DNA from: Escherichia coli
Lineage (GTDB): Bacteria; Pseudomonadota; Gammaproteobacteria; Enterobacterales; Enterobacteriaceae
NCBI RefSeq assembly: GCF_003334765.1
Contig: NZ_QOWT01000028.1
Reading direction: 5' to 3' (one strand)
Length of the DNA: 52,994 nucleotides
Shown in pieces: positions 30,184-44,052 of this stretch. The position numbers and the translations under genes were made by a program. How positions within the stretch are numbered: position 1 is the stretch's first letter; the number at the start of each line of letters is the position of its first letter. The notes beneath the pieces were generated by a model. That model was not told the DNA's origin, made no database searches, and worked only from the letters and a program-made list of their open reading frames with translations.

Positions 30184-30954
30184 TTAAATGACTTTGCGAA
30201 GATTTTCAGCAAATGCGGCGATCTGTTCTTCGCCGTCGCCTTCAATCACGATGCGCTGACGTTCGCGCTGTTTCGGCGCGGCAACCTGTTGTTCTGACCA
30301 GGCTGCCTCTGCGTTAAAACCAATATCCGCCGCCGACCATACCTGGACGGGCTTTTTCGCCGCGCCGAGAATGGCTTTCATCGAAGGAATTTGTGGGGAA
30401 TTGATATCAGTGGAAACAGCAACAACCGCAGGCAGCGGAATGCTTAAGGTTTCGGTTTCATCTTCCAGTTCGCGCTCAACGGTGAGGGTATCTGCCGTCA
30501 GGGAGATAATTTTGCTGACGCCGTTAACTGCCGGAATATTGAGGATTTCGCCCACCAGCAGACCAACCTGCTGGGCATAAAGGTCGGAAGAACCATCGCC
30601 ACAGAGGATCAAATCAAAGCCTGCTTTCTGGGCGGCTGCAGCCAGTGCGCTCGCCGTTTGTTGCGGCAGTGCCTGCTCGAACTGGTCATCAATCACCACA
30701 ATCAGTTCATCCGGGCCGCGCGATAGCACATCTTTACGCCCTTTGGCGTTGGTCAGGGCTTTACCGCCCACACTTAAGGCCGTCACCTGCGCCTCTGCTG
30801 CCTGTTGCTTTAGCTGGCAAGCCGCTTCAATAGCGTTCAGATCGTATTGGCTTATTTTGGCATCGGCTTTGCTGAAGTCTAATGAACCATCAGCATTATT
30901 GACCGCAATATCCTGTTCATCAGGCACGCACTTATAGCAAGTAATAATCTTCAT
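30184..30954 (-). CDS. fixA: electron transfer flavoprotein beta subunit homolog FixA
   Basis: 256-aa protein [35 protein letters not shown]...; start ATG 30954 (the track ORF is N-extended). Confidence 0.93.
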
Positions 30955-31045
30955 TGCATCTCCAGAAATCATGAAGGAAACGTCATTCATATCGGTGGTG
31001 TTAATTACAGATATCACGCCCTTTAATTTGGAAATAAAACTTTAA

Positions 31046-31176
31046 TCACCAATATTGAAAATGTCACACGCAGATAAATCCAACTTTCAATATTGTTAAG
31101 TTCCTCACCAATATTGAAAACATGGCGTAGAAAAAAGAAATTTTCAATATTGCTTTATGGATCACCAATATTGAAA
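31046..31176. promoter_or_regulatory. array of repeated CAATATTGAAA half-sites in the fixA/caiT divergent control region
   Basis: TCACCAATATTGAAA is present three times in direct orientation (31046-31060, 31105-31119, 31162-31176), with the inverse TTTCAATATTG at 31085-31095 and 31142-31152. Confidence 0.6.
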
Positions 31177-31272
31177 GTCAGATGCTATTTTTTTACTCAC
31201 AACACAACATAACAAACTGATTAATAATCAAAATTAACGAGAAAAGCGCCCTCTATTCACCCGAAACAAAAA

Positions 31273-31288
31273 TGTGATAACAATCACA
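31273..31288. promoter_or_regulatory. consensus CRP binding site upstream of caiT
   Basis: TGTGATAACAATCACA matches TGTGA-N6-TCACA perfectly, about 155 nt upstream of the caiT ATG. Confidence 0.65.
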
Positions 31289-31424
31289 GAATGCAGCTTA
31301 TTGAATACCCATTATGAGTTAGCCATTAACGCGTCCACGAGGTTAATAATAATTATATCAAATGTTAACAAAAATAAAACAAACGGGAACGCAAAATAAA
31401 TATTCGTTTTCACAGTGGAATTAA

Positions 31425-32942
<1,518 letters not shown>

Positions 32943-38582: not shown

Positions 38583-38757
38583 GCCGGATGCGGCGTAAAC
38601 GCCTTATCCAACTCTGCTGGAGAGCAACCGTAGGCCGGATAAGATGCGCCAGCATCGCATCCGGCGATAGCTGTCGGATGCGGCATAAACGCCTTATCCA
38701 ACCCGGCTGGAGAGCAACCGTAAGCCGGATAAGATGCGCCAGCATCGCATCCGGCGA
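38583..38757. repeat. tandem duplication of an 85-bp REP-pair (BIME) unit, period about 90 bp
   Basis: Copy A 38583-38667 and copy B 38673-38757 are near-identical (gccggatgcggcgtaaacgccttatccaac...gccggataagatgcgccagcatcgcatccggcga) with a few substitutions. Confidence 0.8.
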
Positions 38758-38786: not shown

Positions 38787-39182
38787 TTAACGACGCATAC
38801 TCTTTGACAACATCATCTGCCACTTCTGCTCGCGGTTAAGTTCCGTGAGCGGAACGGCAGGAATACGCGGTGTCTTTCTTACGCCGACTAATTTTTCCCG
38901 ACTGTTATTGCGCAGGCGCGCGTAAATTTGCTCATCGATATCGACCACTTTAACCAGTCGCTGACACTGGCATCCCCGCCCTTCCAGCTTATTAGGGATC
39001 ATCTTAACTTCGCAGCTTATTTCTGTGACTTCCGACAGAATATAAGTCAGGGTATTAACCGCCTTGCTGTGTTCAATATCGAAATGAATAGAGATCTCTC
39101 TTGCTATCACCCACCGATTTTCAGCCATCATCCATTCGGCGATTAACAAGTAGAGTGGTTTTTCAACATATCCTTCACACAT
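38787..39182 (-). CDS. caiF: transcriptional activator of the cai/fix operons
   Basis: 131-aa protein MCEGYVEKPLYLLIAEWMMAENRWVIAREISIHFDIEHSKAVNTL...; start ATG 39182 (the track ORF is N-extended). Confidence 0.9.
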   Translation of the reverse strand: MCEGYVEKPLYLLIAEWMMAENRWVIAREISIHFDIEHSKAVNTLTYILSEVTEISCEVKMIPNKLEGRGCQCQRLVKVVDIDEQIYARLRNNSREKLVGVRKTPRIPAVPLTELNREQKWQMMLSKSMRR

Positions 39183-43878: not shown

Positions 43879-44052
43879 CAATGATGACGTAAATCAATGC
43901 AAATCTGCTTACCGACGAATTTCTGGCAAACGGCGGCATTCTGGAGATATGGGCGCTAAAAGTCAACTTAATGGCGGGATTTTTTATATTATTTTGTGGC
44001 TCATGCATGTTTTACATGCATTAAGCGACAAAAAGATCATATAACCTGTTCT

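Follow-up and report, generated by a model that had tools for sequence, protein, structure and literature searches.

A perfect CRP palindrome in the cai-fix control region of Escherichia coli as the probable class II activator site of the caiTABCDE promoter

The stretch of Escherichia coli DNA analysed here, which we call the window, is 52,994 nucleotides long and carries the divergent fix and cai operons together with the genes that surround them. Its gene map corresponds to the 0.4-1.6 min region of K-12 in reversed orientation. Gene order in the window is thiBPQ, araC, araBAD and polB, followed further on by folA, kefFC, yaaU, fixXCBA, caiTABCDE, caiF and carAB, and later by ileS. Beyond base 77, the window differs from strain EC4 at a total of 11 positions. 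The genes needed to follow the argument are these:

30184-30954, minus strand: fixA, first gene of the divergent fixABCX operon (NF002888, 532 bits)
31428-32942, plus strand: caiT, the L-carnitine/gamma-butyrobetaine antiporter, first gene of caiTABCDE (NCBIfam NF002887, 939 bits)
38787-39182, minus strand: caiF, a carnitine-specific activator that acts together with CRP on cai and fix (annotation from strain EC4; role from PMC3680233 and PMC12083890)

The CaiT protein encoded in the window is identical, save for one residue, to the crystallised E. coli CaiT (PDB 3hfx). On opposite strands, fixA and caiT diverge from a 473-bp control region that contains the inverted repeat examined in this study. 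A 501-bp stretch around this palindrome is 100% identical to that of strain EC4, and it was found in 5395 of 5426 complete E. coli genomes, in every case between fixA and caiT.

Several features elsewhere in the window were recorded as well. The fixC gene (27891-29177) is an intact open reading frame of 428 amino acids; the EC4 annotation treats fixC as a pseudogene, interrupted by a stop at codon 117, and the two sequences differ by a single base, at 28829. The first 77 bases of the window do not match thiB as it occurs in EC4, and their reverse complement is 100% identical to an IS30 end, including the transposase start, that is present in thousands of E. coli genomes. Therefore, either thiB is interrupted by IS30 or the window begins within a copy of it, and the junction is at 77/78. 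At the opposite end, approximately 52890-52994, the sequence (GGTGATGCTGCCAACTTACTGATTTAGTGTATGATGGTG...) resembles a terminal inverted repeat of IS1, so that the window would appear to have an IS element at each end. Gathering-level matches to Rfam families, which are unrelated to the CRP site discussed below, were found at the following positions:

15083-15162, plus strand: naRNA4 (REP-derived nucleoid-associated RNA), after rluA
38633-38703, minus strand: naRNA4, between caiE and caiF
43879-43931, minus strand: ES003 sRNA, just upstream of carA

The palindrome, TGTGATAACAATCACA, occupies positions 31273-31288 and is centred at 31280.5; its half-sites are palindromic, so that it reads the same on both strands. 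It agrees with the CRP consensus TGTGA-N6-TCACA at 10/10 positions and with the extended form TGTGAT-N4-ATCACA at 12/12, and its 5' flank is AAA. The exact match claimed in the earlier note on this DNA is thus borne out by the sequence, and it is the only exact occurrence of TGTGA-N6-TCACA on either strand of the window. The same note was right to describe the surroundings as AT-rich and to put the site about 155 nt upstream of the caiT ATG (site start 31273, caiT ORF start 31428).

The chance level for such a match was determined from 100 dinucleotide-preserving shuffles of the window, which contained a mean of 0.06 exact occurrences of TGTGA-N6-TCACA, with at least one match in 6 of the 100. 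Judged by this measure, a lone exact match is only modestly significant, which lends some support to the view that the palindrome arose by chance in AT-rich intergenic DNA and has no regulatory role; the conservation data given below bear on the same question. When one mismatch to the consensus was allowed, a single extra site appeared in the window, which is the chance level. This second site, TGTGATTTACGTCACT at 23703-23718, is CRP-like at 9/10 positions and is the only other near-consensus 16-mer, with 1.47 expected per window by chance. Its position, approximately 170 nt upstream of folA, is in the interval from the 3' end of kefC (23724) to the folA start (23532).

Toward caiT, the palindrome is followed by a hexamer that resembles a -10 element, which leads to the following assignment of promoter elements:

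31273-31288, no strand assigned: putative CRP site 1 of the cai promoter, assigned from sequence, at a fixed distance from the -10 block across genera and with half-sites that are invariant in E. coli
31287-31292, plus strand: -35 position, CAGAAT, overlapped by the CRP site; 2/6 to TTGACA, with 17-bp spacing
31310-31315, plus strand: putative -10 hexamer of the caiT promoter, CATTAT, within the conserved block ATACCCATTAT (31305-31315), assigned from geometry and conservation
31322, plus strand: predicted caiT start (G; +/-1-2 nt), from the position of the -10 hexamer

The distance from the centre of the palindrome to the first base of CATTAT (31310) is 29.5 bp, which is the spacing of class II CRP sites. 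With CATTAT as the -10 element (-12 to -7), transcription is predicted to start at 31322, the CRP site would be centred at -41.5, and the leader would be about 106 nt long. This start, which we infer from the sequence, agrees with the reported position of CRP motif 1, -41.5 relative to the cai start (Buchet 1998). A centre about 41.5 bp upstream of the predicted start, with overlap of the -35 region, also means that the palindrome should be regarded as an element of the promoter rather than of the leader, where the earlier note had mistakenly placed it.

A weak or absent -35 element is a further property expected of class II promoters, and CAGAAT, with two of six consensus bases, has this character. 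A generic scan for sigma-70 promoters across 30900-31500 gave 3 matches, against 2.9 expected by chance, and did not call the CATTAT promoter; the scan needs a reasonable -35 element, and such an omission is to be expected where a promoter depends on an activator. Taken together, and as far as sequence can tell, the palindrome, the CATTAT hexamer and the poor -35 element have class II CRP-dependent promoter geometry. The sigma-70 scan does score another candidate downstream, TTAACG-16-AATAAT at 31326-31353 with a start near 31360, at 9/12, and the palindrome could conceivably serve this promoter from a class I-type position. However, promoter-like matches in the region are at the chance level just given, and outside Escherichia conservation is seen for the CATTAT block but not for TTAACG. 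In addition, the CRP centre would fall at approximately -79.5, off the usual class I faces (-61.5, -72.5, -82.5 and -92.5). We therefore consider service to this downstream promoter extremely improbable and retain CATTAT as the likely -10 element paired with the palindrome.

On the fixA side of the palindrome, the control region contains operators for CaiF and additional, weaker CRP-like sequences, none of them assigned a strand:

31050-31060: orphan CaiF half-site, CAATATTGAAA, near the putative fix start
31085-31119: CaiF operator nearer fixA, a perfect copy of TTTCAATATTG-N13-CAATATTGAAA, invariant within E. coli
31094-31109: weaker CRP-like sequence, TGTTAAGTTCCTCACC, 8/10, centred at 31101.5 in the spacer of the first CaiF operator
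31142-31176: second CaiF operator, also a perfect copy of TTTCAATATTG-N13-CAATATTGAAA, with core positions relative to CRP site 1 that are kept across genera
31151-31166: weak CRP-like sequence, TGCTTTATGGATCACC, 6/10 (7/10 in K-12), centred at 31158.5 in the second CaiF operator

The sequence TTTCAATATTG-N13-CAATATTGAAA is the CaiF operator consensus quoted in PMC12083890 and PMC3680233. The CRP palindrome is located approximately 99 bp from the second operator, on its caiT side, and the operators lie 110-230 bp upstream of the CRP site. The core of the orphan half-site lies at -226/-227 from the centre of CRP site 1 in Escherichia, Citrobacter and Salmonella.

The two CRP-like sequences within the CaiF operators are centred 69.5 and 126.5 bp from one and the same point, 31032, which would be the fix start. 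From there to the predicted cai start at 31322 is 290 bp, and all three candidate CRP sites fit this one pair of starts. Buchet, Eichler and Mandrand-Berthelot (J Bacteriol 1998, 180:2599) are said to have mapped two starts 289 bp apart and to have footprinted three CRP sites with DNase I. Mutagenesis in the same study reportedly showed that CRP motif 1, the perfect motif already described at -41.5 of cai, is needed for activation of cai only, and CRP sites 2 and 3 are said to lie at -69.5 and -126.5 of fix. Using these positions, we take 31094-31109 to be, probably, fix CRP site 2 (-69.5), and 31151-31166 to be, again probably, fix CRP site 3 (-126.5). The reported values (-41.5, -69.5, -126.5 and 289 bp) are corroborated here only in so far as the three candidate sites fit a single pair of starts.

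To follow variation within the species, the window was aligned with three strains, one of them a K-12 derivative. Both TGTGA and TCACA are invariant in this alignment, and the spacer between them reads TAACAA, TACCAA or CTAACA. Very little variation is seen in the CaiF operators, the -10 block or the leader, and within the whole intergenic region variation is greatest in the roughly 70 bp directly upstream of the CRP site. Compared with most strains, the window has 1 bp more in the spacer that separates the CaiF operators from CRP site 1. This variable spacer also holds an FNR-like 14-mer at 31224-31237, which reads ATAATCAAAATTAA in the window (7/10 to the FNR consensus), shifted by 1 bp; the K-12 counterpart is TTAATCAAAATTAA (8/10), and the 14-mer is not conserved in strain EC332. 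Matched by position, it is a candidate for the FNR site that EcoCyc gives at -90.5 of caiTp.

To compare the region between genera, we sampled one genome per species with a degenerate DNA probe for the CaiT peptide WGWAFEWYM, which is common to the CaiT proteins of E. coli and Proteus mirabilis and was chosen to avoid bias toward regulatory sequence. The probe recovered 94 loci. Upstream of caiT, CaiF cores were scored as CAATATTG, and a CRP site was counted when it reached at least 9/10 and lay 100-250 nt before the caiT ATG. The outcome was as follows:

47 loci with at least two CaiF cores upstream of caiT, the window included: CRP site of at least 9/10 in 40
35 loci with fewer than two CaiF cores (Shewanella, Campylobacter, Ferrimonas, Edwardsiella, Hafnia and others): CRP site of at least 9/10 in 2
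shuffled upstream regions of the CaiF-core group: CRP site of at least 9/10 in 0.4%

When the loci were stacked on the CRP site without gaps, the pattern that emerged was TGTGA-N6-T[A/C/T]ACA-GAA, then a variable stretch, and then a conserved gAATAccCATtAT in the same columns throughout; the three columns directly 3' of the site (GAA) are at least 90% conserved across genera. Since stacking by the best CRP match makes any conservation in the columns of the site itself circular, the loci were aligned a second time with the -10 block as the sole anchor. Each of the 37 loci placed in this way has a CRP 16-mer of at least 8/10 that ends exactly 21 nt upstream of the block, and in 35 of the 37 it reaches at least 9/10. 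The -10 block was found in none of the 35 loci that lack two CaiF cores. Represented in the block-anchored set are Escherichia (coli, albertii, whittamii and others), Salmonella, many Citrobacter, Pseudocitrobacter, Phytobacter, Pluralibacter, Trabulsiella, Intestinirhabdus, Entomohabitans and Proteus. The site-anchored set (n = 43) adds Cedecea, Atlantibacter and Providencia, which gave no clean match to the -10 block pattern used.

Across the 43 site-anchored species, G2, T3, G4, T12, A14 and C15 of the site are invariant, and the six spacer columns carry only about 0.1-0.4 bits. Purifying selection thus appears to act on the half-sites and not on the 6-bp spacer, as expected of a CRP site; the pattern is seen whatever the anchoring, and it recurs within E. 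coli. These data speak against the chance origin considered above. The 21-nt distance to the -10 block is fixed in every one of the 37 loci from Escherichia to Proteus, compared with 0.4% in shuffles, and the half-sites are invariant while the adjoining bases vary, both within E. coli and between genera. Moreover, the cai promoter is already a known CRP target (PMC3105977). On the strength of the shuffles and the conservation, we reject the chance reading, to which we would assign almost no probability.

The same alignment bears on whether the inverted repeat might fold into a hairpin, in DNA or in RNA, and serve, for instance, as an attenuator or terminator within the caiT leader. In the window, TGTGA and TCACA do form perfectly complementary 5-bp arms. 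A stem of 5 bp closing a 6-nt loop would nonetheless be weak, and in at least 35 of the 43 species the arms are imperfect (TGTGA versus TAACA or TTACA), the opposite arm showing no change that would restore the pairing. The palindrome also lies upstream of the predicted start, so that it would remain untranscribed from caiTp. No terminator-like site was found in 30900-31500, and the Rfam scan of the window gave no match in the cai-fix intergenic region. With neither covariation in the stem nor a terminator-like site ending in a T-run, the hairpin is rejected as a most implausible account of the repeat.

A site for FNR, the anaerobic regulator whose consensus is TTGAT-N4-ATCAA, deserves more attention, since it could mediate anaerobic induction of cai instead of CRP or beside it. 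The inner 14-mer of the palindrome, GTGATAACAATCAC, matches the FNR consensus at 8/10 positions in the window, and cai expression is indeed induced anaerobically (PMC2131755). According to PMC3680233, EcoCyc carries two FNR sites for the cai promoter, at -41.5 and -90.5; a second regulator may therefore be annotated on the same DNA. Both mismatches, however, fall on the bases that discriminate CRP from FNR: each half-site has G at its outer position where FNR sites have T, and the discriminating G (site position 2) is the same in all 43 species. At the orthologous site, the mean match to FNR is 6.3/10, versus 9.0/10 for CRP, and the FNR score is 6 or lower in 30 of the 43. An outer T conserved among orthologues, as an FNR site would have, is thus not what was found: the discriminating bases are of the CRP type, and the FNR match is not conserved. 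Overproduction of CaiF is also reported (Buchet 1998) to restore induction in an fnr mutant, which would make the effect of FNR mainly an indirect one, through caiF. We consider an FNR site at the palindrome improbable, and CRP remains by far the better candidate for its ligand.

Thus, on present evidence the palindrome is very probably the cAMP-CRP activator site (CRP site 1) of the caiTABCDE promoter, arranged as a class II site within the cai-fix divergent control region. A CRP dimer on TGTGA-N6-TCACA, centred at -41.5 and overlapping a very poor -35 element, would recruit and activate RNA polymerase. At class II CRP promoters, this involves contacts with the alpha subunits and with region 4 of sigma-70 (Busby and Ebright 1999). 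CaiF bound to the TTTCAATATTG-N13-CAATATTGAAA operators upstream would be the second activator that the caiT promoter needs. If CRP and CaiF are both required, the operon should be on only when glucose is absent (through cAMP-CRP) and anaerobic cells are supplied with carnitine or crotonobetaine (through CaiF). Catabolite control of cai would then be exerted in two ways: directly, via the palindrome, and indirectly, via the CRP- and FNR-dependent promoter of caiF.

CRP binding at the palindrome and CRP dependence of the promoter are points that we infer or take from the literature, in which cAMP-CRP is described as an activator of cai and fix alike (PMC3105977, PMC3680233, PMC2131755) and CRP is reported to be needed for cai induction (PMC2131755, PMC3680233). 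The caiT promoter also requires CaiF (PMC3680233, PMC12083890), and the caiF promoter is itself under the control of CRP and FNR (PMC3680233). Genomic SELEX has recovered caiT, fixA and caiF as CRP targets, all of them known, and separate CRP molecules act at the divergent cai and fix promoters (PMC3105977). Sequence, geometry, cross-genus conservation and literature therefore all favour the proposal of the earlier note that a CRP site here places the carnitine operon under catabolite control. The palindrome is, in fact, the already characterised CRP site 1 of caiTp and not a new one. Mapping of the start, analysis of a crp mutant and mutation of the site at the cai promoter, the experiments that would examine this proposal, were reportedly all carried out by Buchet et al. 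in 1998.

Two details of the cross-genus comparison may be absent from the accessible literature. The first concerns the second half-site, which reads TAACA in 30 of the 43 site-anchored species and TTACA in 5, and has C at position 13 in 8; the perfect TCACA form was found only in Escherichia, Pseudocitrobacter and Intestinirhabdus. The second concerns the stretch between the CaiF operator and the CRP site (31177-31272), which shows approximately 51% ungapped identity among 21 species, compared with 76% for the segment from the CRP site to the -10 element. Its length is kept in these 21 species, with CaiF cores at -110 and -131 from the CRP centre: the stretch is 98 bp in Escherichia, Citrobacter and Phytobacter, 96-99 bp overall and 99 bp in the window. 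It is about 15 bp longer in Proteus, Pluralibacter, Trabulsiella and Entomohabitans, and measures approximately 113 bp in the first three. A fixed length despite only about 51% identity suggests a constraint of spacing or phase on the action of CaiF. We suggest, tentatively and with more doubt than conviction, that the perfect palindrome is a derived state in Escherichia, Pseudocitrobacter and Intestinirhabdus, where CRP affinity and the strength of catabolite control were perhaps tuned up in the Escherichia lineage, and that the fixed-length stretch reflects a contact, constrained by phase or by looping, that distal CaiF makes with the complex of CRP and RNA polymerase.

Some loci depart from this arrangement. 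At the Yokenella locus (L093) and at loci L020, L083 and L092 (Budvicia, Limnobaculum), CaiF-like cores are present upstream of caiT and no good CRP site occurs where one would be expected. The Yokenella locus has its best CRP match, a CRP2-like site, within a CaiF operator, and CATTAT is found further downstream. The caiT promoter may have been rearranged in Yokenella, Budvicia and Limnobaculum.

As a CRP box of textbook quality, the palindrome would account for the shut-off of anaerobic carnitine metabolism by glucose in E. coli. Its identification also has value as a positive control, in that a true regulatory site was found from sequence alone. The detail added here is modest, namely that the class II geometry is kept from Escherichia to Proteus and that the perfect second half-site occurs in few genera; this cross-genus detail is of possible use for engineering cai promoters or CaiF biosensors.

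The closest known system is CRP site 1 of caiTABCDE in K-12 (Eichler et al. 1994; Buchet et al. 1998, 1999), which shares its locus and both half-sites with the palindrome and stands in the same place with respect to caiT, fixA, the CaiF operators and the -10 block. The K-12 sequence aligns with the window without gaps through the CRP site and the leader. The two differ by one base in the spacer of the site (TAACAA in the window versus TACCAA in K-12) and by 1-2 bp in the length of the spacer between the CaiF operator and the CRP site, and neither difference touches a CRP contact position. Like galP1 and the synthetic promoter CC(-41.5), both of class II, caiTp has its CRP centre 29.5 bp upstream of the -10 element, a poor -35 element that the site overlaps, and a consensus-like core; unlike simple class II promoters, which need CRP alone, it is co-dependent on CaiF bound more than 100 bp upstream. 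Class II promoters of FNR, with TTGAT-N4-ATCAA at -41.5, share with the caiTp site its symmetry, length, promoter position and regulator family. The caiTp site differs from them in its outer base, which is G, the CRP type, in all 43 species, and in a match to the FNR consensus that is not conserved.
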